IMG/VR virus record: IMGVR_UViG_3300033997_000310
Span: 50,802-114,801 of that record
DNA length: 64,000 nt
Origin: a virus
Direction: 5' to 3' (one strand)
The notes below the pieces were generated by a model, which did no database searches, was not told the origin of the DNA, and was given only the letters and a program-made list of their open reading frames with translations. Numbering within the stretch: position 1 is the stretch's first letter; every line of letters begins with the position of its first letter. The translations under genes and the position numbers were made by a program. This document shows, piece by piece, positions 6,617 through 51,008 of this stretch.

Positions 6617-7003
6617 ATGGCCTTCGACATTTCCGCTGCCAAGCAGCTCGACACCGCTGAATACACCGTCATCCACCCGGCGACGAAGGATGAGACGGAA
6701 TGGAAGATCACTTTCGCCGGCCCGAGCCATCCCAAGGCCGTCTCGCAGCGCAACGCCATGCTCCGCAAGGGCCTGGTGCGCAGCAAGAACGGCGGGCGCG
6801 ATCTGAAGCCGAACGTGGTCGATGAGGAAGCCGTCGACTTCATCGTCGATCGCATCATCGGCTGGACCGGCGCGTCGCAGGAGTTCGAAGAGGAATACGC
6901 CAAGTCGCTGCTGATGAAGCCGGAATATAGCTGGCTGCGTGGCCAGTTGAACGTGTTCCTGAACGACGACGCGTCTTTTATCGGCAGCTCCGCGACGAAC
7001 TGA
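6617..7003 (+). CDS. Tail assembly chaperone (gpG-like)
   Basis: Follows the tail tube gene; IHPAT, GPSHP and IIGWTG motifs. Confidence 0.75.
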   Translation: MAFDISAAKQLDTAEYTVIHPATKDETEWKITFAGPSHPKAVSQRNAMLRKGLVRSKNGGRDLKPNVVDEEAVDFIVDRIIGWTGASQEFEEEYAKSLLMKPEYSWLRGQLNVFLNDDASFIGSSATN

Positions 7004-7374
7004 TCGCCTACGCGGAGCACGAGTTTGCCCTGTCGGTGGAAACCGATGGGGCAACCCTCCGGAAGCACCTGGAGAGCGTGGAAGCGCAGACAGGCAAGCG
7101 ACCGGCACAGTTGGATGGCCCCGAGTTCCCAACCGGGGTGGAGTATCTGTGGGAGTGGTACTGGCAGCTGCGTCGCCACAACGGCGGCAATGGTTTCGGG
7201 CCCGGCCCGATATCGTGGAGTGAAATCGACGCTTGGGCGAGAAGAACCGGGGCAGACCCGGCCCCCTGGGAGTTGGAAGTGATCTCTGAACTGGACGCCG
7301 CCTATCTGAAACAGCAGGCGGTTGAACGGAAAAAGAATGACGACCGACATCGCAACGCTCGGGATCAAGGTTGA
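6976..7374 (+). CDS. Tail assembly chaperone, second part (gpT-like), likely reached by -1 frameshift
   Basis: The -1 frame is open from TTTT at 6976-6979; YLWEWYWQL and GPISWSEIDAW motifs. Confidence 0.7.
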   Translation, partial: FYRQLRDELIAYAEHEFALSVETDGATLRKHLESVEAQTGKRPAQLDGPEFPTGVEYLWEWYWQLRRHNGGNGFGPGPISWSEIDAWARRTGADPAPWELEVISELDAAYLKQQAVERKKNDDRHRNARDQG

Positions 7375-19730: not shown

Positions 19731-20354
19731 CTATTCTTCGTAAGCAGTCATCGAGAAAGCCAGCGTTTTCGCGGCCCCGGCGCGGTTTGTCATGCGGATC
19801 AGGTAATTGGTCGATGCCTTGAAAATGATTTCGTTGTCGAACCGGAAGTCACCACCAACGGCAGACGATTTCGTCCCGCCTGGATTGAAGCCGGAGTAAA
19901 GCAACGTGCCCGTGGCTGATATGGTCGGTGTGTAAAATGTGTCCGTATCAGGCATGGCCGCGCTGGAGCGGTTGCGATTATGCACCGTCACTGCCGTGCC
20001 ATCACCGCTCACTGTAGTGCCTTCGTAGATCAGAATTTCAAAGTTTCCACCGCCGACAACGTCGCAAATGGCGTGGCACTCAATTCCAGCCGGCACCTTG
20101 ATCAGGATGTCGGCGTTCGCGTCATCGGCAACCGAAGAAAATACATGGCTGAAGGTGAAGACCTGACCCAGATGGATCCGCTGGTGCACGATCGGCATCG
20201 TGACCAGGGAAGCGCCGATGGCGTCGCTGCCGTTGCGCGATTCGGAGTTGGTTAACTCCACCGGCATTGGCGTAGCCGGCTTGACGACTGTCCGGTTCCC
20301 GCCGGCACTGGCGAACGCGGCAACGTGGATTGGTTCAACGAGCGGTTCGGTCAT
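19731..20354 (-). CDS. Hypothetical beta-rich phage protein
   Basis: Clean 207-aa ORF on the same strand as the cas locus and downstream of it. Confidence 0.65.
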   Translation of the reverse strand: MTEPLVEPIHVAAFASAGGNRTVVKPATPMPVELTNSESRNGSDAIGASLVTMPIVHQRIHLGQVFTFSHVFSSVADDANADILIKVPAGIECHAICDVVGGGNFEILIYEGTTVSGDGTAVTVHNRNRSSAAMPDTDTFYTPTISATGTLLYSGFNPGGTKSSAVGGDFRFDNEIIFKASTNYLIRMTNRAGAAKTLAFSMTAYEE

Positions 20355-20467
20355 GGCGGCTCACCGGGCTTGAGGTGAGCGCATAATACCGCATCCGGTC
20401 GATTGCAGGAATGGCCAACCTATAAGCATGACTTACAGGTTGCTATCGGCCCGCTGGTCAAGTGCTA

Positions 20468-20634
20468 TTTTTCGTCCACGCTCATTTGCGTGGTGAGTGA
20501 ATCCAGCCCCAGGTAAACGAGATTCTGCCCCTCATTGCCGCTCCCACTAAGTGCGGGGTGAGTGATCCAGCGCGATGCCATTCATATAAGGCTGTCATGT
20601 TGTCACCCCCGCCCAAATGCGGGGTATGTGAACC
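20468..20634 (-). CRISPR. Mini-array: 3 divergent ~36-nt repeats and 2 ~30-nt spacers
   Basis: Repeats start at about 20468, 20534 and 20599 (period 65-66). The 20599 copy GTTGTCACCCCCGCCCAAATGCGGGGTATGTGAACC closely matches the main-array repeat at 23876. Confidence 0.75.
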
Positions 20635-20692
20635 GATCCAGCCACAAAGCACTGACATGGAAAGAAAACCAGCGCCTGTGACCAGGGAAAAA

Positions 20693-22906
20693 TCACGCTG
20701 CGACCTCCTGTTTCACCGCATACGGGAACACTTCCGCGTAACCGTACACATCATCAAACCCCGACCGGAACCGTTCCGGGATGCAGTCGGAGAAGCCGGC
20801 GAACGAGGCGTCGTTGTAAGCCCGCGCCCGGCGGTTGCTGGTGATGCTCTGCGGCAGCGGGAACCGTGGATCGAGCATCCAAACCCGCACGTCGTCGCTG
20901 GCCTGACGGATGCCGCGACCGAAGCCCTGTTTCAGCCGCTTCTTGGCCCCCAGGGCGACGCTGGAGAAGTCGATAGCCCGGATGGCATCTTCCGACAGCC
21001 CGCGCGCACGCAGGGCCGCCGCACGGGCCCCAGAGCGGGCATTATCGAGCGATCCGAACGGCAGTCGGGTGACGACGAGGTTCTGCACCATGCCGGGCAG
21101 ATCGACGCCTTCCCATGCCGCCGGGGAAATCAGCAGAGCGTTCGGCGTTTCGCGGTACTTGGCCAGCGCATCAACCAGCTTCGTGCCGCGCACATGCTCA
21201 ATCACGTCAACCCCAGCCGCACGGACGCAAGCGGCAATTGCCTGCGTGTCGACATAGCTCGTGGTCAGCACCAGCGTGCGCCCGCCGGCGGCATGGGCCG
21301 CAACGACGCCATCAGCGGCATATTCAACCCAGGCCGGGTTGGTGGTGACGATTTCCTCATCGTCGACCTTGGCCGTGGGGCGGGGAGCGGCGCGATCCGC
21401 CAAATGCAGGGAAGACCAGCGCCCGAACACTTCCGGCGCGAACCGCTGGCACCGATCCGGCGACACGTTCTTGACCTTCTCCGGGTTGGACCGGTCGTAA
21501 TAGATGCCGACCTCGCTGCGGAACGACCGGAAGTCGGCATCGCTTTCCGACTGGCTCCGAGCCGGCGCGTCCAGGGTGGCGCTGGTGAAGACCAGCGAAC
21601 GCAGGAACGGCGCATATTCCGTGCCGTCCGACGACTTGCCGGGCTTGAACAGGCGCGCGGCCAGCCGGCCAGGATAGACCGGCACGATGCTGAGGGACGG
21701 ATAGGAGCGTACCGGAGACCAGCGCAGCAGCGGGCACTGAATGGCCGAATGCTCGCCTTCCTTGGCGTCCAGCGTGCCGTTGGCGAAGCTGCGCAGTTCC
21801 TCCACCATGTCACGCATCTCCGCGACGACACCGGCATCAACGCCGGCTTTCTTGCCGCGCGTGGAAGCCTCCAGCAGCAGACCGCTGAGATAGACCGCGT
21901 GCCCCACGGCTTCCTTGCGCAGATCGGCCATGTTCGGGGCCGAAAGCAGGACATGCCCGCCACGATCATCGCGCGTGAAGCCGGGGCGATGCTCCATCTT
22001 CTCGAAGGTGGCCCCCATCCATGCTTCCCAATCCTTCAGGGCGGCGAACGCCTTGATGGTGTCGATACCGGCGTCACTGACGGCGGTGAGCGTGCGGCGC
22101 ATCATCGGGGCAGAGACGCGAGTGTCAAAAACCGATTCGGCGGCGTGCGGGATGCGGTCGGCCTCATCGATCACGCCGATATCGAATCCGTCGCTTTCAC
22201 CGGCCAGCAGCCGGTTCCACCGGATGGCGGAAATCATGGTCAGGGCATGGTTGGTGACGACGATATCGGCGGTATGACTGCCAACAACGTGGTCCTTGTA
22301 CCGCTGCTGGTCATCGTCGCTGCACACGGCGGTGAGGCACACGTCTGCCTCGGAAATGCCGCACGGCAGCGGGCCGAACGTCTCTTTCCACTCCGCGATA
22401 TCGCCGCTGGCCTCTGCGAAGCTGCGCAGCGCCTCCAGGCTGATCCGGGCATCGTCCGTGAGCGCGCCATCGGTGGCCATGGCAGCCATCAGTGCAACGA
22501 TGCGGGACGGTGACAGGAAGTTGCGGCGACCCTTGCGCACGGCGGCGCTGATCTGGATTCCGGTGATGGCCTTGGCGACCGCGATGGCGACCGGCACGTC
22601 CTTGCCCATCAACTGCGTCTGCAGATTGATGGTGTATGTGCTGACCAAGCCGCGCTGCCCGGTGCGGGCGCAATGCACGGCCATGGGAACCAGATAGCCC
22701 AGCGACTTGCCGACGCCGGTTTCGGCTTCATAGAGCGACACTTCGCCGATGCCGGGTGTGGCGTTCTCGAAGCTGTTGGCAACCGCCTTGGCGTAGGCGA
22801 TTTGCTGGGGATTGGGGCGATACGCCTTGCCCAGCTTCTTCATTTCGGCATCAACGGGACCGCCAGCGGCGAACGCGGCGGCGACGATTTCAGAGAGAGT
22901 CGGCAT
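20693..22906 (-). CDS. csf4: CRISPR-associated DinG helicase (type IV-A)
   Basis: EAETGVGKS, IDEAD, SAT, EGVD and QGFGRGIR SF2 motifs; flanked by arrays; next to csf2. Confidence 0.9.
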   Translation of the reverse strand: MPTLSEIVAAAFAAGGPVDAEMKKLGKAYRPNPQQIAYAKAVANSFENATPGIGEVSLYEAETGVGKSLGYLVPMAVHCARTGQRGLVSTYTINLQTQLMGKDVPVAIAVAKAITGIQISAAVRKGRRNFLSPSRIVALMAAMATDGALTDDARISLEALRSFAEASGDIAEWKETFGPLPCGISEADVCLTAVCSDDDQQRYKDHVVGSHTADIVVTNHALTMISAIRWNRLLAGESDGFDIGVIDEADRIPHAAESVFDTRVSAPMMRRTLTAVSDAGIDTIKAFAALKDWEAWMGATFEKMEHRPGFTRDDRGGHVLLSAPNMADLRKEAVGHAVYLSGLLLEASTRGKKAGVDAGVVAEMRDMVEELRSFANGTLDAKEGEHSAIQCPLLRWSPVRSYPSLSIVPVYPGRLAARLFKPGKSSDGTEYAPFLRSLVFTSATLDAPARSQSESDADFRSFRSEVGIYYDRSNPEKVKNVSPDRCQRFAPEVFGRWSSLHLADRAAPRPTAKVDDEEIVTTNPAWVEYAADGVVAAHAAGGRTLVLTTSYVDTQAIAACVRAAGVDVIEHVRGTKLVDALAKYRETPNALLISPAAWEGVDLPGMVQNLVVTRLPFGSLDNARSGARAAALRARGLSEDAIRAIDFSSVALGAKKRLKQGFGRGIRQASDDVRVWMLDPRFPLPQSITSNRRARAYNDASFAGFSDCIPERFRSGFDDVYGYAEVFPYAVKQEVAA

Positions 22907-23020
22907 GTTTGAGTTCCTGTTTGCAGATGGTGATGGGAAAGGTACATCATGGCGGGCAATGAGAAAAGTGCATAATTTGACCGGCCCCGGCAGGCGGGGG
23001 GATTTTTGCGTTCATCACTC

Positions 23021-24307
23021 AGTTGACGGACCCGCAGCGGCGGGTGGCGGCATGAACGAGAAGCCGCAGTTGCGCACCTCTTTTTCGTCCCCGCGCTGGC
23101 GGGGAAAGGGGCGTTGCCGAATCCGTCCTTTATCAATTTCCATACCCGCAACTGCGTGGTCGCTTGGTCGGCGGTCGTGACCGCTCCACCACCGAGTTTT
23201 CACCCCCGCGTGTGCGGGGAAGGCCACGGCTGTCTTGCGCGTCGGTCTACGGAGCCATTTTTCATCCCCGCGCGTGCGGAGCAGCATTGGCGCTGGATAT
23301 CATCGCGGACCTGAACCAATTTCCGTCCCCGCACGTGCGGGGGAGGCCTGGACGGCAGAGACCTACCAGCGCCTCGATTGTTTTCGTCCCCGCGCGTGCG
23401 GGGGATACCCCGCCACCTATCGCCGCAATGGCGTGTTCCTGTTTTCGTCCCCGCGCGTGCGGGGGAGGAATGAACATCCAATCAATGTGCAAGCCCTGCC
23501 ACTTTCCGCCCCCGCCCATGCAAGGCTTCCCATTTTATCAAGCAGTCGTCATTGGCCGCTCTTTCCACCCCCGCCATGCAGGGAACCGTCCGCCCGATGT
23601 TGGCTCCATCCATCTGGTTGTCGTCCCAACGAGTGCTGGGAAAGTGATTCTGCCACGGGTTGAAATGGTGGCGTCGATATTTTCACCCCCACTGGATTGC
23701 GGGGTAGGTGAGGCATCGTATCGGTTTCGTCAGACCCGGCCAAGTTTCCGTCCCCACCAGAATGCGGGGCAAGAGAGACGAAGGCTGGCACGTTCAAGGT
23801 GGTGTTCGTGTTTCCGTCCCCACCAGAATGCGGGGTAAGCAAAACGCTGTCCTTGCCGCTGGTACGTCGCCTCACGTTTCCGGCCCCGCCCAAATGCGGG
23901 GTATGTGAACCCTCATTTTTCCGATTTCGTACCCATCAAACGTTTTCGTCCCCGCCCAAATGCGGGGTAAGAGAGACACATGCACAAGGCTGGCCTGATA
24001 ACCGGTTGTTTCCGTCCCCACCTAAATGCGGGGTAAGAGAGACCGGCGCCCGGGTGAAGCGGATGGCCCGCCAGTTGTCGTCCCCACCTAAATGCGGGGT
24101 AAGAGAGACACATCGGGGGGTGAATCCGAACAGCGATCTGTTGTCGTCCCCACCTAAATGCGGGGTAAGAGAGACGCTCGTCATCGCTCAGAAGATCCCG
24201 CTCCAGTTGTCGTCCCCACCTAAATGCGGGGTAAGAGAGACTCCCGCCGACGGCCATCGGGCGCGGTATAGGTTGTCGTCCCCACCTAAATGCGGGGTAA
24301 GAGAGAC
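23021..24307 (-). CRISPR. Main CRISPR array, about 21 repeats of two classes
   Basis: Ten 36-nt repeats start at 23679, 23744, 23810, 23876, 23942, 24008, 24074, 24140, 24206 and 24272; the last four are identical (GTTGTCGTCCCCACCTAAATGCGGGGTAAGAGAGAC). About 11 shorter repeats start at 23021, 23081, 23136, 23196, 23258, 23319, 23380, 23441, 23502, 23561 and 23617 (e.g. GTTTTCGTCCCCGCGCGTGCGGGGGATAC). Confidence 0.95.
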
Positions 24308-24408
24308 TGATCCTAACACAACTCATTGCAATCAAATACGAATTACGCATTCGCATTTGAAAAAAACCATGATGTACTTGTTCAAGAACCGGTGAAAATG
24401 CGCGCTTT
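24308..24408 (-). promoter_or_regulatory. CRISPR leader
   Basis: AT-rich non-coding stretch abutting the most conserved repeats. Confidence 0.7.
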
Positions 24409-25470
24409 TTACGGCGCGCGGAAGTTCAGGCTGGTCACGTCGGTGGCATCCCAGGCCGCCAGCGCGGAAGCGATGATGCCGGTATCCAGCAACTCCAGGC
24501 CACCGAACGGTTCGATCTGGACGCTGCCGACATTTGCGAAGCCGTCACCTTCCCGCACCGTCACCGTCCAGGTGCCGCTGATCACCCCGCAGCCGTGATT
24601 CGCGTGCGCCCCGACAACCGGGTCCAGCGCCAACTCACGCAGCGCGGCCAAGAACAGGCCCAACTCCAGCTTGGTCACGTTCCGCAGAACCATGCGCTGG
24701 TTCAGCACCTTACCCTGCGGGATCACCTCGTAACCGCCCAACACCTGCTTGATGTTGACGCCGGCGGCCTCGACCTGCCCCTTCAGCGCGTCACGCTTGG
24801 CGGACAGTTCCGCGACTTCAGCAGCCGCATCGGCATTGCCCTTGGCGTTCTTCACGGCCTTGCGCAGGGCCGTCTCGATGTTCTTCAGTTCGGCCTTGGC
24901 CTTGCTGTTGCTGGCACCTTCCTCCGACATGGACAGCCACTTGTCGCGCTCGCCATCAGCCAGGGTATTGAGCGTGTCCGGGGTGCGTTCCATGTCATCG
25001 CTGCGGATGCCAGCGATCTTATCCGGTTCGGTCGGCTGTTCCGGCACGGCATGGCTCACCATCAGCTTGCCGGCGGTATGCGCGGCCATGCTGCCGAAAA
25101 GCGAGATCAGCGGGTTCGCGGCACGCAGATTGGCCGCCGCGATGATATCGGCCTTGCTGTCGCTGCCCTTGTCCTTGATGCCGCCGACCACGTTGAAATA
25201 GTGGTCATCCAGGGTGAAGACGGGAGCGCCATCACCCTGCACCGCGCGGCGAACGACGGTGAGCGCGTGCCGACGCAGCTTTCCGCGCAAGCCGGAGCCA
25301 GGGAAATAGACGGTCTCGGCATTGCCCACGGTCATGCGGGGCAGACGCGACGGCGGGTTCTTCTCGCGTTCGGCGCGCTTCTCGGTCTCGGTCTTCGGCG
25401 GGCAGGTGGCCAGAGGCGATTCGGTGGTGATGGTGCCGTTCAGGACGACGGTATAGGTCTGGGTGTTCAT
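24409..25470 (-). CDS. csf2: Type IV CRISPR backbone subunit Cas7
   Basis: Motifs GTITTESPL, FPGSGLRGKLRR, NPLISLFGS, GKLMVSH and VGAHANHGCG. Start moved to ATG 25470 because the longer ORF runs through repeats. Confidence 0.9.
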   Translation of the reverse strand: MNTQTYTVVLNGTITTESPLATCPPKTETEKRAEREKNPPSRLPRMTVGNAETVYFPGSGLRGKLRRHALTVVRRAVQGDGAPVFTLDDHYFNVVGGIKDKGSDSKADIIAAANLRAANPLISLFGSMAAHTAGKLMVSHAVPEQPTEPDKIAGIRSDDMERTPDTLNTLADGERDKWLSMSEEGASNSKAKAELKNIETALRKAVKNAKGNADAAAEVAELSAKRDALKGQVEAAGVNIKQVLGGYEVIPQGKVLNQRMVLRNVTKLELGLFLAALRELALDPVVGAHANHGCGVISGTWTVTVREGDGFANVGSVQIEPFGGLELLDTGIIASALAAWDATDVTSLNFRAP

Positions 25471-25520
25471 GTTCGTGTTCCATGTTGGGTAGGTGCGGGG
25501 TGGCCCGCGATCGAGTGTGT

Positions 25521-25858
25521 TTTGTCGGCCCCGCGTGGGCGGGGCATGAGCAGAAACCCACTCGACCTCTGGGCGGTGACTTTTCGCCCCCGCGTGTGCG
25601 GGGCGAGAGTCGGTCGGGATGTGGCCAATCACCTTCTCGTTATCGTACCCGCGCGGGTGCGGGTTTTGGTCTTGACTGTCACTGAACTTCGCAATCTCCA
25701 TCCTCTTGCCGTCCCCGTGCTCGTGCGGGGTGAGGGGTGCGTCGTTCGATTACTCGGATGACAACGAAGTCCTTACCGTCCCCGCGCACGTGCGAGGCAT
25801 CGGCTGTTGTGCTTTCGGATCAAGACCAGCCCTTTCCATCCCCACTCACGCCGGGAAC
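25521..25858 (-). CRISPR. Degenerate array between cas6 and csf2 (6 repeats)
   Basis: Handle plus CCCCGC..GCGGGG hairpin units start at 25521, 25580, 25639, 25705, 25772 and 25832 (periods 59, 59, 66, 67, 60). Confidence 0.75.
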
Positions 25859-26421
25859 AGCCGCAACATCCCCATGCCATAGCTCTTGGCCGGGCCGATG
25901 CCGATCTTCATCGCATCCGTCAGTGCATCGGCATCGGTAACGCGCAACGCGCCGGTGAAGGTGGTGAAATCTAAGCCGTCCTTGCCGATCTTCGCCTCGT
26001 TGCGCATGACATGGCGGAACTCTGTGCGGAGCGCGACTTGCTCGACCACGAAGCCGTGCTTCAGCCCGCGCGCCTTGAGCCAGTCCATCCGGCCCTCATC
26101 GTCCCCACGACGCAGCATCACGCGCTTGCCGCGCTGCCCGCCGTTGCGCTGATCCACGCGGATGCACCGCGTCGGATGCGCCGTCAGCACGAAGCGGTAC
26201 GTGCAGCCTTCGACTGGCAATGCCACGTCGTCGGCGTGCTGGGCAACTGTATCGGGCAGGTTGTCTGAGCGAATCACGATGCCAGGCGCGGCCTCGTCAA
26301 TCGCAAACAGGAAATCCCGCGTCTTGTCGCTGCCTTCACCAAGCATGAAGGCATAGGCCATTTCATGCAGAGCATAGCGGTTGTGGGGCAGGGCGGGCAG
26401 TTGGATGGAGACTTCACGCAT
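25846..26421 (-). CDS. cas6: Cas6e-like crRNA endoribonuclease
   Basis: C-terminal G-loop GIGPAKSYGMGML; YRFVLTAHPT, WL....KHGF and FTGALRVTD motifs. Confidence 0.9.
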   Translation of the reverse strand: MREVSIQLPALPHNRYALHEMAYAFMLGEGSDKTRDFLFAIDEAAPGIVIRSDNLPDTVAQHADDVALPVEGCTYRFVLTAHPTRCIRVDQRNGGQRGKRVMLRRGDDEGRMDWLKARGLKHGFVVEQVALRTEFRHVMRNEAKIGKDGLDFTTFTGALRVTDADALTDAMKIGIGPAKSYGMGMLRLFPA

Positions 26422-26424
26422 TTT

Positions 26425-27114
26425 TCAGCCCTCGTTCTTCTCGCGGTCACCGCACAGCAGCGACAGCATGTTGAAATCATCGCTGCCCACGGCGGGCAGG
26501 CGGTCGATAACGGCGTCCAGCGCCGGGCACTTGACGATCATGGCGTCGATTTCTGCGTCGATCGATTCCGCCTCTGAGTGATTGCGCTTACGGCGCTCCA
26601 GGGCGCGGGCGGCGGCCCGCCATTGCATCGGCGCGATGCCGTCCAGATCGGCATAAAGGCCTGCAACCAGGGCGCGGTTGATGGTTGCGGTCTCGACGCC
26701 GGAAAGGCTGATCACATCGCTGCCGTAATTGATCCGCCAGTTGTGGATCGTGTTCCAGTCCTTGCCATGGATGACGACCATGAACGGGCTGGCCGGCGGC
26801 GACAGGACGATTTCGGCAATCCAGTTGGGAATAGTGCGCCAAGATCCATCATGGATCACAGTGCTGGCCGGCGGCTGGCGGCACGGCTTGATATCGGCCA
26901 TCAGCACGCAGCCGGTCTCAGTGACCAGCGACATGGCCTTGCCGCCACCCAGGCGAACCGCAGAACCGGCATTGGCCGCGTGCGCGTGGTTGCGGGACAG
27001 GGCAACGATGGCCGGATTGCTTTCATTACTCACGGCAGAATGAAGGTACTGGCCAATGCCGCGATACCAGAAATCCAGCGGGTCAAGGTTGATGATGTCC
27101 ATTGCTTGCCTCAT
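26425..27114 (-). CDS. csf1: Type IV large subunit (Csf1/Cas8-like, no zinc finger)
   Basis: Position between csf3 and cas6; LSPPASPFMVV resembles the Csf1 L.PP.PPF motif; no CxxC pairs. Confidence 0.6.
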   Translation of the reverse strand: MRQAMDIINLDPLDFWYRGIGQYLHSAVSNESNPAIVALSRNHAHAANAGSAVRLGGGKAMSLVTETGCVLMADIKPCRQPPASTVIHDGSWRTIPNWIAEIVLSPPASPFMVVIHGKDWNTIHNWRINYGSDVISLSGVETATINRALVAGLYADLDGIAPMQWRAAARALERRKRNHSEAESIDAEIDAMIVKCPALDAVIDRLPAVGSDDFNMLSLLCGDREKNEG

Positions 27115-27797
27115 GCGGCCAGAAAGCGCGGGGAAATCACGGCGTCGCCAACCGGATTAGGCACGGCGCACAGTGCGTAGTCGCCTTGCCAATACGGCGG
27201 CTGAAATCGCTCCGCATTCAGCGCGGCGCGCTGATTGGACAGCTTCCCCCAGATGCTGACGGGGACAGGCCGGGCCGGACTGCCATCAGCCAGGGCCAAG
27301 CCGACGTGGTGGCCAGTCACTTCCCGCACATCAATGCGGGACACCTGACCATATCCGACGGAACGCTTGGTTCCGATGCCAGATGCGTCGGACAGCAAAT
27401 CCTTGACGGCGGCAACGTCTCCGGTTCCGCAGAACCAGACGGCATCGGCATTGATGCTGGTGTATTCCGACAGGCTGTTCTGGTAATCGCCCCGCGCGCT
27501 GTCGATGCGCGGGAGCGCCTTGCGCCCGCCGTTCGGCCGGATCATGTCCGGCGTAATTTCCATGTCGGCACGGATTGAGCCGACGATCATCACGCCGCGC
27601 AATGGAGAATTGCCATCGATGAAAGCCTGCGAACCAGCCCAGACGCCGCTGCTGCGATCCAGCGGGATTTCTGCGTGTGCGCGTTCAACGCTGCCGGTGC
27701 GCTCATAAATCAGCGCCGCAAGCAGTCCATCAAGCAGCAGCCGACGACCCGGAATGACCGGTGTTGCCATGCTGATCTTGATCACAAACGGGGTCAT
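27111..27797 (-). CDS. csf3: Type IV CRISPR Cas5 subunit
   Basis: Motifs LLDGLLAA, IPL, WFCGTGD, GIGTKRSVGYGQV, ARPVP and PPYW. Start uncertain (27797 or 27854). Confidence 0.85.
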   Translation of the reverse strand: MTPFVIKISMATPVIPGRRLLLDGLLAALIYERTGSVERAHAEIPLDRSSGVWAGSQAFIDGNSPLRGVMIVGSIRADMEITPDMIRPNGGRKALPRIDSARGDYQNSLSEYTSINADAVWFCGTGDVAAVKDLLSDASGIGTKRSVGYGQVSRIDVREVTGHHVGLALADGSPARPVPVSIWGKLSNQRAALNAERFQPPYWQGDYALCAVPNPVGDAVISPRFLAA

Positions 27798-27962
27798 CCG
27801 ACCTCCTGTTGTCTGCGTTTCGATGGGCTGATATTGATAAATTCCATTACGCAACGCAAGCAGGAAAATGAGAAAAGTTCATTATATTGCTGCGAGGCAT
27901 GAGATTGGACGTTTTCCAGATTCGCGGTATGATGGCGCGACTCGGGAAGCAATGGGGCCGCC

Positions 27963-28616
27963 ATGTCGATCATCACGCTTTCGCTGCTGGCAGCCGCCAT
28001 GCCGGACTCCACTACACAGAACCGCGAGCGATATGCCGATCCGCTGGGCGACGCCTGCGTTCGCTTCGGAATCACGTCCCCCAAGCAAATCGCCATGTTC
28101 ATTGCCCAAGTCGGGCATGAGAGCGGCTATCTCCGTAGCGTTCAGGAAAGCCTGAACTACCGGGCCGAGGCGCTGGTTCCGACCTTCGGTTCGCATCGCA
28201 TCACCGCTGAACAGGCGGCCCGGCTTGGCCGTTCCGGTGATCGTCCGGCTGATCAACAGGGCATCGCCAACGTCGTGTATGGCGGAAGGTTCGGCCAGGA
28301 CATTCTTGGCAACACCGAACCAGGCGACGGCTGGCGGTTCCGCGGCCGCGGGCTGATCCAGACGACGGGCCGGAAGAACTATGCGACGTGCGGGGCTGGT
28401 ATCGGCCTCGACCTGATCAGCAATCCTGACTTGCTTCTTGAGCCTGAACATGCCGCCGCGTCAGCCGGTTGGTTCTGGTCATCGCGTGGTCTGAACCGGT
28501 TCGCGGACGCTGGAGACCTTGAAGGTTGCACCAAGAAGGTCAACGGCGGACTGAAGGGCTTGGATGATCGCCGGGCCATCTATGACCGCGCCCGGAAAGT
28601 GTTCGGGTTGCCATGA
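27963..28616 (+). CDS. Endolysin, glycoside hydrolase family 19
   Basis: FIAQVGHESG, ESLNY, GDGWRFRGRGLIQTTGRKNY and VNGGLKGLDDR motifs. Confidence 0.93.
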   Translation: MSIITLSLLAAAMPDSTTQNRERYADPLGDACVRFGITSPKQIAMFIAQVGHESGYLRSVQESLNYRAEALVPTFGSHRITAEQAARLGRSGDRPADQQGIANVVYGGRFGQDILGNTEPGDGWRFRGRGLIQTTGRKNYATCGAGIGLDLISNPDLLLEPEHAAASAGWFWSSRGLNRFADAGDLEGCTKKVNGGLKGLDDRRAIYDRARKVFGLP

Positions 28617-28888
28617 CCGATTCCGCTTACACACACACCGAAGGCGCTTTCCCGAACACCCCGCGCTGGTCTGCTCGGCGCTTTGGCATGATCCTGGCCC
28701 TGTTTATGTCCGGCGTCATCATGATCGGCCTTGGCGTGCATCCAGGTATTGCGGAAGCGCGGGCACTCCGCCTGATCGACGCCGGAACGGAATGCCTCAT
28801 GTTTTCGTCGCTTGGCTTTGCGTTTGCCGCGTCGGCTGAGCGCATCGGCGGGTGGTGGACTGCCAAGCGACCGGTGGCGGCATCATGA
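28613..28888 (+). CDS. Putative holin
   Basis: 91 aa with two TM segments; overlaps the endolysin stop. Confidence 0.6.
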   Translation: MTDSAYTHTEGAFPNTPRWSARRFGMILALFMSGVIMIGLGVHPGIAEARALRLIDAGTECLMFSSLGFAFAASAERIGGWWTAKRPVAAS

Positions 28889-29163
28889 AGCTGCTGTTCT
28901 GCCGGGAATGCGGCGATGTCCGCAAGCTGCATGTCAATCGTGAATTGCATGCGTGCGCCTGTGGTGCGTCCGCTGGCCGGTATGTCGATGGGCTGAACGC
29001 CGAAGTGACCGGCCCGTGCCTCGCTCTTGGCATCGACAACAACTCGCTGCGCCTGGCTCTCACAAACCACGAGCGGTCACCACGTATGGACGGCCTGGGT
29101 CACCGCATCGAGGCGTTCATCATCCCTGAAACGGCCCCAACCCTTCGGAGGGTGCAAAGATGA
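28885..29163 (+). CDS. Small Cys-rich hypothetical protein
   Basis: MKLLFCRECGD..CACG; ATGA-coupled at both ends. Confidence 0.65.
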   Translation: MKLLFCRECGDVRKLHVNRELHACACGASAGRYVDGLNAEVTGPCLALGIDNNSLRLALTNHERSPRMDGLGHRIEAFIIPETAPTLRRVQR

Positions 29164-29666
29164 TTCCGTTCATTGCGCCACTGCTGGCCGGGCGCGGCCT
29201 AAAGCTGCTGCTGATCGGCGGCGCTGTCGCTGCCGTTGGCTTCGCCGGCTTCCTGGCATACCGCTACGTGGACGGCCTGACCGAAAAGGTCGCCATCCTG
29301 TCGGCCAACAACGCCAAGCTGGAACTGGCATTCCAAGAGGCACAGGCCCGTGGCGATGCGCTGCGGGACCATATCCAGCGCGTGGCCATCGAGGTGGAGG
29401 AAAACAACAAGCGCCTGTCCGATCTGGCGGTTGAAGCCGCCACCGCCCGCGCCGAAGCCAAGGCCACCGCCAACCTTTTCGCCAAGCACGACTTCAAGGG
29501 GCTCGTCAATGCCAAGCCGGAACTTCTGGAGAAGCGCATCAATGCTGGCACTGCTCGCGTGCAGCGCCTGCTCGAACAAGCCAGCACCGTTGGAGGTGAA
29601 GCTGGCTCCGGAGCCGCCGCCGGCCAAGGTGCAACTGGCGCTGCCTCCGGTTCCGGACCCCGTTGA
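29160..29666 (+). CDS. Inner-membrane spanin (Rz-like)
   Basis: N-terminal TM helix, coiled coil and AKPELLEKRIN motif. Confidence 0.8.
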   Translation: MIPFIAPLLAGRGLKLLLIGGAVAAVGFAGFLAYRYVDGLTEKVAILSANNAKLELAFQEAQARGDALRDHIQRVAIEVEENNKRLSDLAVEAATARAEAKATANLFAKHDFKGLVNAKPELLEKRINAGTARVQRLLEQASTVGGEAGSGAAAGQGATGAASGSGPR

Positions 29667-37549: not shown

Positions 37550-39154
37550 TCAGAGATGTTCGGCCAGGGCGGCGCGGATGTCGGCCAGCGTCTGATGACG
37601 CTTCATCTGGCCATTCTCGAATACGACCTCCAGCACGCCGGCGTTGGCCTGCTCGCGCGTCTGCCGATCCAGCAGATGGAAGCCGAAGCCGGTCTTCTCG
37701 ACACGGATCAGGCCAGCGGCCGACTTCTTCACGCCACTGTCGGTCTTCGGGTCCTTCTGCAGGACGCGCTCCTCGCCGTTGACGACGCCATAGGTGGCCT
37801 TGATCGCCGTGCCGAAGGTATCGCGGGTGACGTACTGGTAGGTGTAACTGCCGATGCCCAGCACCACGTTCGTGCTGGCAAATCCCTTGGCGGCCAGGCG
37901 CTTCAAGATGCGCTCCGCCCGATCCAGGGTGATGCTGTCGCCGTAGATCAGGCCGACGTGGCTGTCCAACTGCCGGTGACCTGTGCTTGTCTCGGTGCCG
38001 CCGAACACGTCCCACAGGCACTGGATAGCGCCGCGCTGGGCCGGAGTTGGCTCCCATATCCGATGCGTCGAAATGCTGGGCCCGTGCGCGGCACCGGTGT
38101 TGTGGGCCTCGACTTTGTAGAAGTGGCCGTCCTGGTGGAACACATCCACCCCAGCCTGCAGCATGTCCATCAGGCTGACGAACTCGCTGCGATCCGGCAC
38201 GCCGCAGATGATGTCGACCGGGTCGCCGCTATCGGGCCGGAACACCACCTTGCCGTCGCGCGCCAGGATCTCATCCTTTAGCTTGACCGTGAACTCGGTC
38301 ATCACCTTCCAGAAATCCCAGGTGTCGCTGACGATGCTGACGATACCGGACGGGTAGGTGTGGATCAGGCGGCGGAAGGTTTCGACTTCGTCATCATGCC
38401 CGCCCATGCACATGACGCTGTGCTCCGTGGCCGGCACGGACCCGCCGACGAAGGTCTCGGCGCCGCTGTAATATTCCTCCAGGAAGTCGATGGCGGGGAT
38501 GGTATCGGTTCCGGTGAAGCTCAGCAGGTGGGCCGCGCCGCTCGACATGGCGTCGTGAATGCCGCTCATGCCCCGGAAGCTGAAATCGTGGCCCTGCCAC
38601 AGCGCGAAGGCGGGATCACCGCCGGTCTCGACCGCCATGCGATGGAACAGCCGGCGATACTCAAAGGCGGTAGTCGCCGTCGTCATCGGCTTCCACAGTT
38701 CGGCGCTCAGTTGCGTCTCGACATAGTTTGTCAGCCACGCGAAATCTGGGTGTGTGTTCTCGATCGTGAACATGGGCACGCGGATGTCGACGCGACTGCC
38801 TTCCGGCACGGCCTTGATGCGCAGCGGCAGATAGCCCAGGTCATGCAGCGCCGCGATGTGATCCGCGCCGACCGCTCCGGCGCCCAGATAGCCGTCCATG
38901 CGACGCGTGTAACGGGCGACGACCGTATCCCGAGACAAGCCGAAGAACGAGCGGTCCCAGGTGTCGATCAGGAGCCACTGACACACGGCCTGGAGACCGA
39001 AGAACACGACCTTGTGGTCGAAGTCAGACAGCATCTTGGCGTGCGCATCACCGCGGCACGTCCAGTTGCTGTAGACCAGTTGGGTGCCGGGCGGATACTG
39101 CTTGCGATGCCCGGTCTTATAGCCATCGGTGGCGTGGGGTGCGAAGATGTTCAT
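37550..39154 (-). CDS. Nicotinamide phosphoribosyltransferase-like protein (NAMPT/Namat)
   Basis: TDGYKTGH, HDFSFRG, SVPATEHSVM, SIVSDTWD, RPDSGDP, IYGDSIT and KDPKTD motifs. Confidence 0.93.
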   Translation of the reverse strand: MNIFAPHATDGYKTGHRKQYPPGTQLVYSNWTCRGDAHAKMLSDFDHKVVFFGLQAVCQWLLIDTWDRSFFGLSRDTVVARYTRRMDGYLGAGAVGADHIAALHDLGYLPLRIKAVPEGSRVDIRVPMFTIENTHPDFAWLTNYVETQLSAELWKPMTTATTAFEYRRLFHRMAVETGGDPAFALWQGHDFSFRGMSGIHDAMSSGAAHLLSFTGTDTIPAIDFLEEYYSGAETFVGGSVPATEHSVMCMGGHDDEVETFRRLIHTYPSGIVSIVSDTWDFWKVMTEFTVKLKDEILARDGKVVFRPDSGDPVDIICGVPDRSEFVSLMDMLQAGVDVFHQDGHFYKVEAHNTGAAHGPSISTHRIWEPTPAQRGAIQCLWDVFGGTETSTGHRQLDSHVGLIYGDSITLDRAERILKRLAAKGFASTNVVLGIGSYTYQYVTRDTFGTAIKATYGVVNGEERVLQKDPKTDSGVKKSAAGLIRVEKTGFGFHLLDRQTREQANAGVLEVVFENGQMKRHQTLADIRAALAEHL

Positions 39155-50795: not shown

Positions 50796-51008
50796 ATGCA
50801 AGAAAAAATCGCTGATGGGTTCCCGCCCGGAAGCCCCTTGTCGTACCGGATGCAGGCAGCACGCTTGCGGCATGAGGTCAATAACAACCCTTCACGCGAC
50901 GAAGGCCTGCTTCGTCATGCGGAGGCTCTTGACCACGTCGCGGATGTGCTGGGCGCAATCCCTGAACATCTTCGGGGTGTGCCGCAGAATGTACGCCTGA
51001 CTGCGTAA
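50796..51008 (+). CDS. Hypothetical protein
   Basis: GAGG RBS, 70 aa. Confidence 0.4.
   Translation: MQEKIADGFPPGSPLSYRMQAARLRHEVNNNPSRDEGLLRHAEALDHVADVLGAIPEHLRGVPQNVRLTA

Follow-up and report, generated by a model that had tools for sequence, protein, structure and literature searches.

Degenerate CRISPR repeat units between cas6e and csf2 in the type IV-A operon of a subsurface metagenome phage

Introduction

CRISPR arrays normally lie beside cas operons, behind a leader of their own. Here we describe a phage locus in which a set of repeat units lies inside such an operon. The stretch analyzed, referred to as the window, comprises 64,000 nt (positions 50,802 to 114,801) of the 114.8-kb IMG/VR virus record IMGVR_UViG_3300033997_000310, which comes from a subsurface metagenome. 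It carries a minus-strand type IV-A CRISPR-Cas locus with six repeat-derived units between the cas6e and csf2 genes, hereafter the junction array. We regard the junction as a well-known element, the CRISPR array, in an unusual place, where it would have a plausible consequence.

In canonical I-E and IV-A3 arrays processed by Cas6e, the repeat is about 29 nt long, with an 8-nt 5' handle and a 3' hairpin (PMC7038947). That type IV systems occur on some phages and prophages, have Cas6e-like enzymes and use the adaptation machinery of the host is likewise known (PMC7038947, PMC11656645, PMC8175902). Neither the 2025 update of the classification nor the type IV reviews searched here (including PMC8175902) describe arrays placed between type IV-A effector genes. 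With canonical I-E and IV-A3 arrays the junction array has in common a G+C hairpin with an 8-nt handle, a period near 60 bp over part of its length, a CasE-type Cas6 and unique spacers, and the locus lacks cas1 and cas2, as is usual for type IV-A. Unlike those arrays, it is leaderless and promoterless, every one of its repeats is different, periods of ~60 and ~66 bp are mixed, and it stands between a pair of effector genes, where the cas6 stop codon falls within its first unit.

Degenerate units among cas genes are also found in the CreA/CreTA and CreR mini-arrays, which in type I-B lie near cas6 and whose RNAs are processed by the system's own Cas6, according to passages of a mini-array survey (bioRxiv 10.1101/2023.03.03.530964). 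As those passages have it, a mini-array carries one spacer, usually shortened, that matches a promoter of a cas or toxin gene through its seed (10 nt or more) and a protospacer-adjacent motif (PAM) and is conserved in related loci, whereas the junction holds five spacers of normal length for which our searches gave no target and no conservation. The passages of the same survey returned by a term search do not name type IV among the mini-array systems (bioRxiv 10.1101/2023.03.03.530964). A further likeness is to Cracr arrays and solitary repeat units, which are phage-borne, degenerate, I-E-like repeats, several in a row (bioRxiv 10.1101/2024.10.29.618823; PMC11656645); silencing of host cas promoters by Cracr is reported in the 2026 version of that preprint (bioRxiv 10.1101/2024.10.29.618823). 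Cracr arrays use host Cas proteins and target host cas promoters, whereas the phage described here has its own effector and Cas6, and its units are intra-operonic. Among engineered systems, Qi et al. are said to have used synthetic Cas6f (Csy4) sites to insulate genes in operons, reportedly in Nat Biotechnol in 2012. The junction array resembles such insulators in that a Cas6 hairpin stands between cistrons, where cleavage would uncouple the mRNAs. Csy4 insulators are engineered single sites, whereas the junction is a natural, array-derived set that would be cut by the product of the upstream cistron.

Results and Discussion

Repeat-derived units at the cas6e-csf2 junction

The original prediction for this DNA was a degenerate array inside the operon, between cas6 and csf2, with six repeat-like units, all different, and mixed periods of about 60 and 66 bp. 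Its place is borne out by matches to a covariance model (R1, see below) together with Pfam and PADLOC matches of the genes, and five of the six units are firm and one marginal. The gap that holds the units runs, on the minus strand, from the cas6e stop at 25846 to the csf2 start at 25470, and they have the same sense as the genes. Each comprises a CCCC...GGGG hairpin of ~18 nt and, immediately after it, a handle of 8 nt with the pattern N-Y-G-R-N-A-A-N; the handles have their 3' ends at 25832, 25772, 25705, 25639, 25580 and 25521, which gives spacings of 60, 67, 66, 59 and 59 bp. All are mutually different (6/6), and the near-identity of canonical repeats is not seen among them. If the repeat is taken as 29 nt, the units enclose five spacers, which are unique and 30-38 nt long.

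The first unit, as had been noted originally, overlaps the end of cas6: the TGA codon (25848-25846) lies in its loop, and its 5' arm is built from the last cas6 codons. No room is left for a leader, and a consensus scan found no promoter-like site in 25470-25860. Folded alone, unit 1 has a longer stem, which extends into the handle (-10.7 kcal/mol); the unit is not formed in the fold of the full interval. At the other end of the array, unit 6 lies in the 5' untranslated region (UTR) of csf2, with 49 nt between it and the start codon. The closing pair of the unit 4 hairpin is changed on both sides to A-U, a compensatory change, and the stem-loop of unit 5 is identical to that of unit 18 in the main array of the locus. 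The junction sequence recurs without differences or variants in independent Logan contigs of two sequencing runs (X1 record 4 covers 24279-29500 and X2 record 12 covers 25630-25877), which excludes an assembly artefact. Three public runs are listed, all from a single study and all recorded as probable DNA, with no RNA run among them; two of the three contain the stretch.

Statistical and structural support

We counted a strict motif, in which the handle is combined with a stem of 5 bp or more that has no fewer than 4 G-C pairs, and compared the count with 2000 dinucleotide shuffles. The motif occurs 5 times in 25480-25880, against a shuffle mean of 0.09 and a maximum of 2. The covariance model R1 contains no junction unit; its sole source was a set of eight main-array units from the leader-distal part. 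It finds all six junction units, on the gene strand only and as full-length model matches, with E values from 4e-8 to 0.096. Because a model made without them recovers them at E values of 4e-8 to 2e-3, five units are secure. Unit 1 scores at background, the best R1 match outside the three array regions of the locus being 13.4 bits; it is supported mainly by its phase with the other units and is marginal.

Single units fold at -9 to -16.5 kcal/mol, which is comparable to canonical repeats (-10.9 and -13.1 kcal/mol). The fold of the 411-nt interval has a z-score of -3.8, and 5 of the hairpins are present in its minimum free energy structure. That standard finders would probably miss the array had been foreseen in the original prediction and agrees with our searches: Tandem Repeats Finder at score 30 reported the main array and nothing in the interval, and a general repeat search broke the interval up into two families, of 3 and 2 copies. 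When 20300-28000 was scanned with Rfam at E values up to 1, neither a CRISPR repeat family nor any other relevant RNA was returned.

Across the six units, what stays constant is the arms of the stem and positions G3, A6 and A7 of the handle; the loops, 5' flanks and spacers vary. Changes on both sides that preserve pairing occur in junction unit 4 and main-array unit 21, where the closing pair is A-U, and in the third unit downstream of dinG, where the third pair is A-U. This pattern suggests that hairpin and handle have been under continued selection in all three array regions, as opposed to uniform decay. The argument is limited by the small sample and by the descent that the units share, and hence is not proof.

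Three array regions and two repeat classes

The locus holds three array regions, namely the junction, the main array (24307-23022) and a short set of units downstream of dinG (20634-20468), so that the operon is interspersed with arrays over its whole length. In the main array, units 1-10, the leader-proximal ones, have a 36-nt repeat, 30-nt spacers and a period of 65-66 bp; their repeats are mostly identical, four of them fully. The leader-distal units 11-21 have degenerate I-E-like repeats at a period of 55-62 bp. Hairpin and 8-nt handle are kept in both classes. The canonical main repeat consists of 10 nt, an 18-nt stem-loop and then the 8 nt ACGACAAC, exactly 8 nt past the stem as in type I-E, and this layout is Cas6e geometry.

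In a handle-anchored alignment, the junction units and main-array units 11-21 fall into the same class, with the consensus TCCCCCGCACGCGCGGGG+ACGAAAAC. A first, ungapped alignment across all repeat classes was structurally inconsistent, and no model was built from it. Because its class is that of the leader-distal units, the junction array resembles the old end of the main array; the two have no spacer in common. In distant BLAST searches, the I-E-like part of the query matched stretches without a listed feature on Streptomyces and Acetobacter plasmids, which we take to be I-E-type arrays. The first unit downstream of dinG, directly after its stop codon, carries a variant 5' flank, GGTTCACATA, that it has in common only with main-array unit 7 (23876-23911), which suggests copying or a repeat-mediated rearrangement around dinG.

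Relatives of the locus

The Csf2 protein of the window belongs to a rare branch, with 16 proteins among 5.8 billion clusters (P0002 is 70% identical). Pattern scans found two close relatives only, the IMG/VR contigs L001 and L002, which are 62-68% identical to the window in Csf2, 64% in the csf1-like protein and 41% in Cas6. Since the two are near-identical over the cas6-csf2 region read, they count as one independent lineage. Their order runs from csf3 through the csf1-like gene, cas6 and csf2 to a leader and an array whose period is 66 bp; an open reading frame (ORF) of the size of an integrase gene lies further upstream. The gap between the cas6 stop and the csf2 start is 44 nt, and it holds one hairpin, CCCCGCATCTGGGG, followed by ATGATGAT; there is one unit at this junction and no spacer. 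R1 misses this unit and gives the L001 array itself just 12-13 bits, and for that reason a separate model of the L001 repeat was used. With this model the junction unit scores 21.3 bits (E 0.003) and is the only match outside the array in those contigs.

Viral scans with the single Csf2 protein, a Csf2 alignment and a csf1-like alignment gave no close relative beyond L001 and L002, the last of them returning these same two contigs, and the main repeat pattern had no match in the viral scan. A scan of genome contigs yielded one relative, at 44% identity, and one of metagenome contigs yielded five, at 28-31%. No relative was found among 400 genomes of the class of the metagenome-assembled genome that carries L003, and megablast of the locus gave no match in the phage and plasmid collections. 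In the distant relatives L003 and L005-L007 (their Csf2 identities are 44% and about 30%), cas6 abuts or overlaps csf2 with no hairpin between. L005-L007 run from cas6 through csf2 to dinG uninterrupted, and in L004, L005/L006 and L008 the array lies outside the gene cluster. Because these distant systems lack junction units, the units are a feature of the lineage of the window and L001, their number being six in the former and one in the latter. The junction array most likely arose in the common ancestor of the window phage and L001/L002, and either grew from a single repeat or, in L001/L002, collapsed to one at the junction.

Searches for spacer targets

The original prediction had held that the released guides could be fixed regulatory RNAs, and had pointed to seed-plus-PAM matches and to conservation in related phages as the places to look. 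Neither yielded support. We searched the five junction spacers and the csf2 5' UTR, as a "pseudo-spacer", against the whole 114.8-kb phage genome and obtained chance-level matches only (best 13/14 or 12/13, BLAST E at least 1.9). Each exact seed of 9-12 nt has one or two occurrences in this genome, none with an AAG flank, and when seeds were scored with every sixth position disregarded, the spacers themselves were the sole matches there. No spacer matches the divergent promoter region 27855-27962. Positions 2-14 of spacer 1 match 12/13 at 27771-27783 (+), within the first 85 nt of csf3, with a mismatch at position 6. This match has a CCA flank, a mismatched position 1 and a BLAST E of 8, and about ten such matches occur genome-wide; we treat it as chance, the post hoc p for falling near the operon start being about 0.03-0.04.

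A distant BLAST search with 22980-25860 against 72,556 PLSDB plasmids and 50,697 INPHARED phages gave no convincing protospacer for junction or main-array spacers. The junction spacers are absent from L001 and L002, whose Csf2 is only 62-68% identical, an absence that the original prediction had listed as one half of what would refute it, and comparisons of the window's spacers with L001-L008, and of the L001 spacers with the window's genome, gave chance-level matches only. Spacer 2 has a reverse match of 11 nt in the handle region of L001 (E 0.5), which we likewise judged to be chance.

A probable old array within an effector operon

The reading that we favor, with a probability of roughly 55%, is that the interval is an old, leaderless CRISPR array inside an effector operon, transcribed by read-through and cut by Cas6, whose spacers are ordinary and unmatched. 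As the gap offers no space for a separate promoter, transcription of the array would come from the promoter of the operon, upstream of csf3, by read-through. The CasE-type Cas6 of the phage would bind each hairpin and cut at its 3' base, which would free up to five RNAs resembling CRISPR RNAs (crRNAs), 59-67 nt long, each with a variant 8-nt 5' handle and a 3' hairpin. The csf3-csf1-cas6 message would then end in a Cas6-bound hairpin, and the csf2 message, severed from the cas6 message, would begin with a handle-like 5' end. A change in the csf2:cas6 expression ratio would be a by-product of this architecture and not a guide-directed circuit. In support of this reading, the units fill the whole cas6-csf2 gap in gene orientation, and Cas6e is encoded immediately upstream. 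That Cas6 would cut its own polycistronic mRNA before csf2, as the original prediction had it, is what we infer from this anatomy, and it gains weight from the junction unit of L001/L002. Of that interpretation as a whole, the array and its place in the operon stand, with self-cutting of the mRNA as a likely corollary, and the fixed regulatory guides are not supported.

Several observations weigh against the favored reading. We infer both the transcription and the cutting of the units. All six repeats differ and unit 1 is marginal; some units may escape cutting. Cas6e can be sensitive to changes in stem and loop, and a one-base deletion impaired processing (bioRxiv 10.1101/2024.10.29.618823). 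The single junction unit in the relatives, together with the pairing that has been kept, could equally mean a selected site. Finally, handles ending in AAG are found in 4/6 junction units against 2/24 other units of the window (hypergeometric p about 0.007, post hoc), an excess that a plain relic does not explain. The distal units of the L001 array also end in AAG, and these ends may be only an old or ancestral repeat variant.

Alternative explanations

A selected role of the junction units in operon processing is possible, and it takes its most concrete form as a Cas6 processing site or module in which the spacers are irrelevant and cleavage would uncouple the stability and translation of csf2 from that of csf3, csf1 and cas6. 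The rationale is that the csf2 product is needed in several copies per complex, and the csf3, csf1 and cas6 products in one each; by way of feedback, Csf3 and Csf2 might nucleate on the handle of the csf2 message and occlude its ribosome-binding site, which would control Cas7 dosage. We consider this somewhat unlikely. L001/L002 keep one repeat-like unit exactly at the cas6-csf2 junction, where the handle ends 22 nt before the csf2 start, with the ribosome-binding site GGAG and the AUG within a guide-length stretch, whereas the csf2 AUG of the window is 49 nt past the handle and outside a 30-32-nt guide. The location of unit 6 in the csf2 5' UTR, the base pairing kept through changes on both sides and a terminator-like hairpin after csf2, which suggests a csf3-csf2 transcription unit containing only the junction array, also speak for such a site. 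However, a single site would be enough, yet there are six, array-like and with normal-length spacers; L003 and L005-L007 have no junction hairpin, so the system works without it; and L001 and L002 amount to one independent lineage. On balance, the single unit of L001/L002 favors selection of the site, and the six normal-looking units of the window, together with their absence from distant relatives, favor an ordinary old array; a cut that is tolerated has slightly better than even odds in our judgement, whereas a cut selected to set Csf2 dosage is a lesser, tentative possibility. Rather unlikely, in our view, is a conserved self-processing or feedback module that acts as an autoregulator of effector stoichiometry by either or both of two routes. 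In one, the Cas6-cut csf2 message would start with a crRNA handle, on which surplus Csf3 and Csf2 would assemble and stop Cas7 translation; in the other, crRNAs with AAG handles would return the nuclease-free complex to the array DNA, as a roadblock for csf2 and the genes downstream.

The proposal of an inert relic, with repeats too diverged for Cas6 and an interval that is a structured intercistronic spacer, accounts for the differences among all six repeats, with no identical pair that would mark recent acquisition, for the background R1 score of unit 1 and for the lack of spacer targets in our searches. It is nevertheless unlikely, given stem arms and a handle core much better kept than loops and flanks, compensatory pairs, hairpin energies equal to those of canonical repeats, and a Cas6 that must already accept two loop classes within the main array. 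Fixed regulatory guides of the CreR, CreA or Cracr kind appear quite unlikely. Spacers would here pair partially with phage or host promoters, and transcription would be repressed either by the type IV-A complex, which has no nuclease, or by the Cascade of a host I-E system. Precedents exist in the degenerate-repeat regulatory mini-arrays established in cas loci of types I, II and V, as passages of the survey state (bioRxiv 10.1101/2023.03.03.530964), and in degenerate I-E-like prophage arrays that silence host cas promoters (bioRxiv 10.1101/2024.10.29.618823), and type IV-A works through repression. AAG, the ending of 4/6 handles, is the PAM used for IV-A1 targets, while IV-A3 reads AAN (PMC11519345). 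AAG is also the PAM of I-E targets. The array's own DNA would look PAM-flanked if the system, whose own PAM may differ, reads AAG, and in a nuclease-free system such self-targeting would mean self-repression and not damage. The early csf3 match of spacer 1 (positions 2-14, 12/13) would fit a regulatory guide, but its E of 8, CCA flank, mismatched position 1 and about ten equals genome-wide tell against it, as do the lack of any AAG-flanked seed of 9-12 nt in the 114.8-kb genome, the absence of the spacers from L001/L002 and from matches in the phage and plasmid collections, and their full length, regulatory spacers characterized so far being 21-24 nt (bioRxiv 10.1101/2024.10.29.618823). Very improbable, lastly, are RNA anti-CRISPR decoys, in which I-E-like units would titrate host Cas6e and Cascade subunits. 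The units are phage-borne and I-E-like, and solitary viral repeat units have been proposed, and partly shown, to act as decoys (review PMC11656645), but here the phage encodes its own matching Cas6e and effector beside the units, which lie within a cas operon and not in an early anti-defence region.

If the cutting is real, the junction would be a natural counterpart of the Cas6-site operon insulators of synthetic biology, and a simple way to set the Cas7:Cas6 ratio that is not described for type IV in the literature searched. The locus also preserves stages of array turnover, with fresh 36-nt repeats, old I-E-like repeats and, in relatives, a solitary repeat; these may help explain how arrays are gained, moved and lost in systems without Cas1-Cas2. 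If the array is merely decaying, it is a curiosity of locus architecture.

Locus layout and phage context

The features of the locus are collected in Table 1. Read 5' to 3' on the minus strand, their order is csf3, csf1-like gene, cas6e, junction units, csf2, leader, main array, dinG and three further units, and the locus lies between tail-fibre genes and a plus-strand GH19 endolysin gene. The type IV-A gene set is present (csf2, csf3, a DinG-family helicase, Cas6 and a CRISPR array, with no effector nuclease), and no cas1, cas2 or cas3 was seen in the locus.

Table 1. Features of the type IV-A locus and its surroundings, in window coordinates and in the order of the minus strand; bits and E values of repeat units are from model R1, and energies are those of single-unit folds
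Feature	Coordinates	Strand	Basis and remarks
GH19 (chitinase-class) endolysin	27963-28616	+	PF00182, 4e-9; diverges from cas operon
Candidate -10 box TATAAT, perfect	27881-27886	-	Read in the 108-bp csf3/endolysin divergent region 27855-27962
csf3 (Cas5 of type IV)	27111-27854	-	PADLOC Csf3_0_IV 2.4e-37; TIGR03116 below its cut-off
Gene in csf1/cas8-like position, 229 aa	26425-27114	-	Position; 64% identical to L001 counterpart (6619-7278)
cas6e (CasE-type crRNA endonuclease)	25846-26421	-	PF08798 9e-26; TIGR01907 1e-19, above cut-off; PADLOC Cas6/Cas6e
Junction unit 1, weak hairpin + handle ATGGAAAG	25832-25857	-	13.0 bits, E 0.096; marginal
Junction unit 2, hairpin CCTCGC/GCGGGG + handle ACGGTAAG	25772-25797	-	22.1 bits, E 1e-4; -10.1 kcal/mol
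Junction unit 3, hairpin CCCCG/CGGGG + handle ACGGCAAG	25705-25730	-	18.0 bits, E 2e-3; -9 kcal/mol
Junction unit 4, hairpin ACCCGC/GCGGGT + handle ACGATAAC	25639-25664	-	21.2 bits, E 2e-4; -11.2 kcal/mol, z -3.3
Junction unit 5, hairpin CCCCGC-ACAC-GCGGGG + handle GCGAAAAG	25580-25605	-	32.7 bits, E 4e-8; -16.5 kcal/mol
Junction unit 6, hairpin GCCCCGC/GCGGGGC + handle CCGACAAA	25521-25546	-	30.6 bits, E 2e-7; -15.4 kcal/mol
csf2 (Cas7 of type IV), 353 aa	24409-25470	-	PADLOC Csf2_0_IV 6e-53; homologues align from Met 25470
Terminator-like hairpin, then A+T-rich leader of main array	24309-24419	-	Read in sequence
Main CRISPR array, 21 units	23022-24307	-	Tandem-repeat search and reading; order csf2-leader-array-dinG
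dinG/csf4 helicase	20693-22906	-	PADLOC Csf4_0_IVA 2e-140
Three repeat units downstream of dinG	20468-20634	-	E 8e-5 (20599), 8e-4 (20468), 4 (20534)

The perfect TATAAT at 27886-27881 is the likely promoter of the cas operon; its -35 is weak, and the promoter-consensus scan did not list it. A minus-strand ORF at 27882-28451 was considered as the first gene of the operon and rejected in favor of the plus-strand GH19 endolysin. At the other end of csf2, a hairpin of the form GCGCGC-N8-GCGCGC followed by ATTTT (24419-24400, minus strand) overlaps the stop codon and immediately precedes the main array's leader. The terminator and promoter scan does not list it. The hairpin may be a partial terminator and suggests that the locus is split, with csf3 to csf2 as one putative transcription unit and leader, array and dinG as another.

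An extension of csf2 to 430 aa, with 77 more codons from a start at 25701, was rejected since homologues start at 25470. The open frame 24409-25701 (minus strand) spans units 4-6, and a gene caller choosing 25701 would hide half of the junction array, which calls for caution in annotation: the frame back to 25701 can conceal three units in a falsely extended csf2.

In an alignment of Cas6e with E. coli CasE (4qyz_K), which spans residues 13-190, the conserved Y-x-L-H motif keeps its His. For the 229-aa protein in the position of the large subunit, Pfam, PADLOC, NCBIfam, PDB sequences and the ESM Atlas gave no match; a small Csf1/Cas8-like subunit of a new kind is a possible identity. The codons of its C-terminus, LLCGDREKN (26421-26450, minus strand; 7242-7269, plus strand, in L001), read like GGGGACCGCGAAAAG and score 10.6 bits with the repeat models. 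These weak matches are probably a coincidence of coding sequence with the motif of 3' arm plus handle.

Beyond the locus, profile matches identify genes for a tape-measure protein, tail proteins, RecT, NAMPT and an integrase in the phage genome, and because these are present we regard the virus as a tailed temperate phage. The NAMPT gene lies at 37550-39154 on the minus strand (phrog_448, 5e-192).

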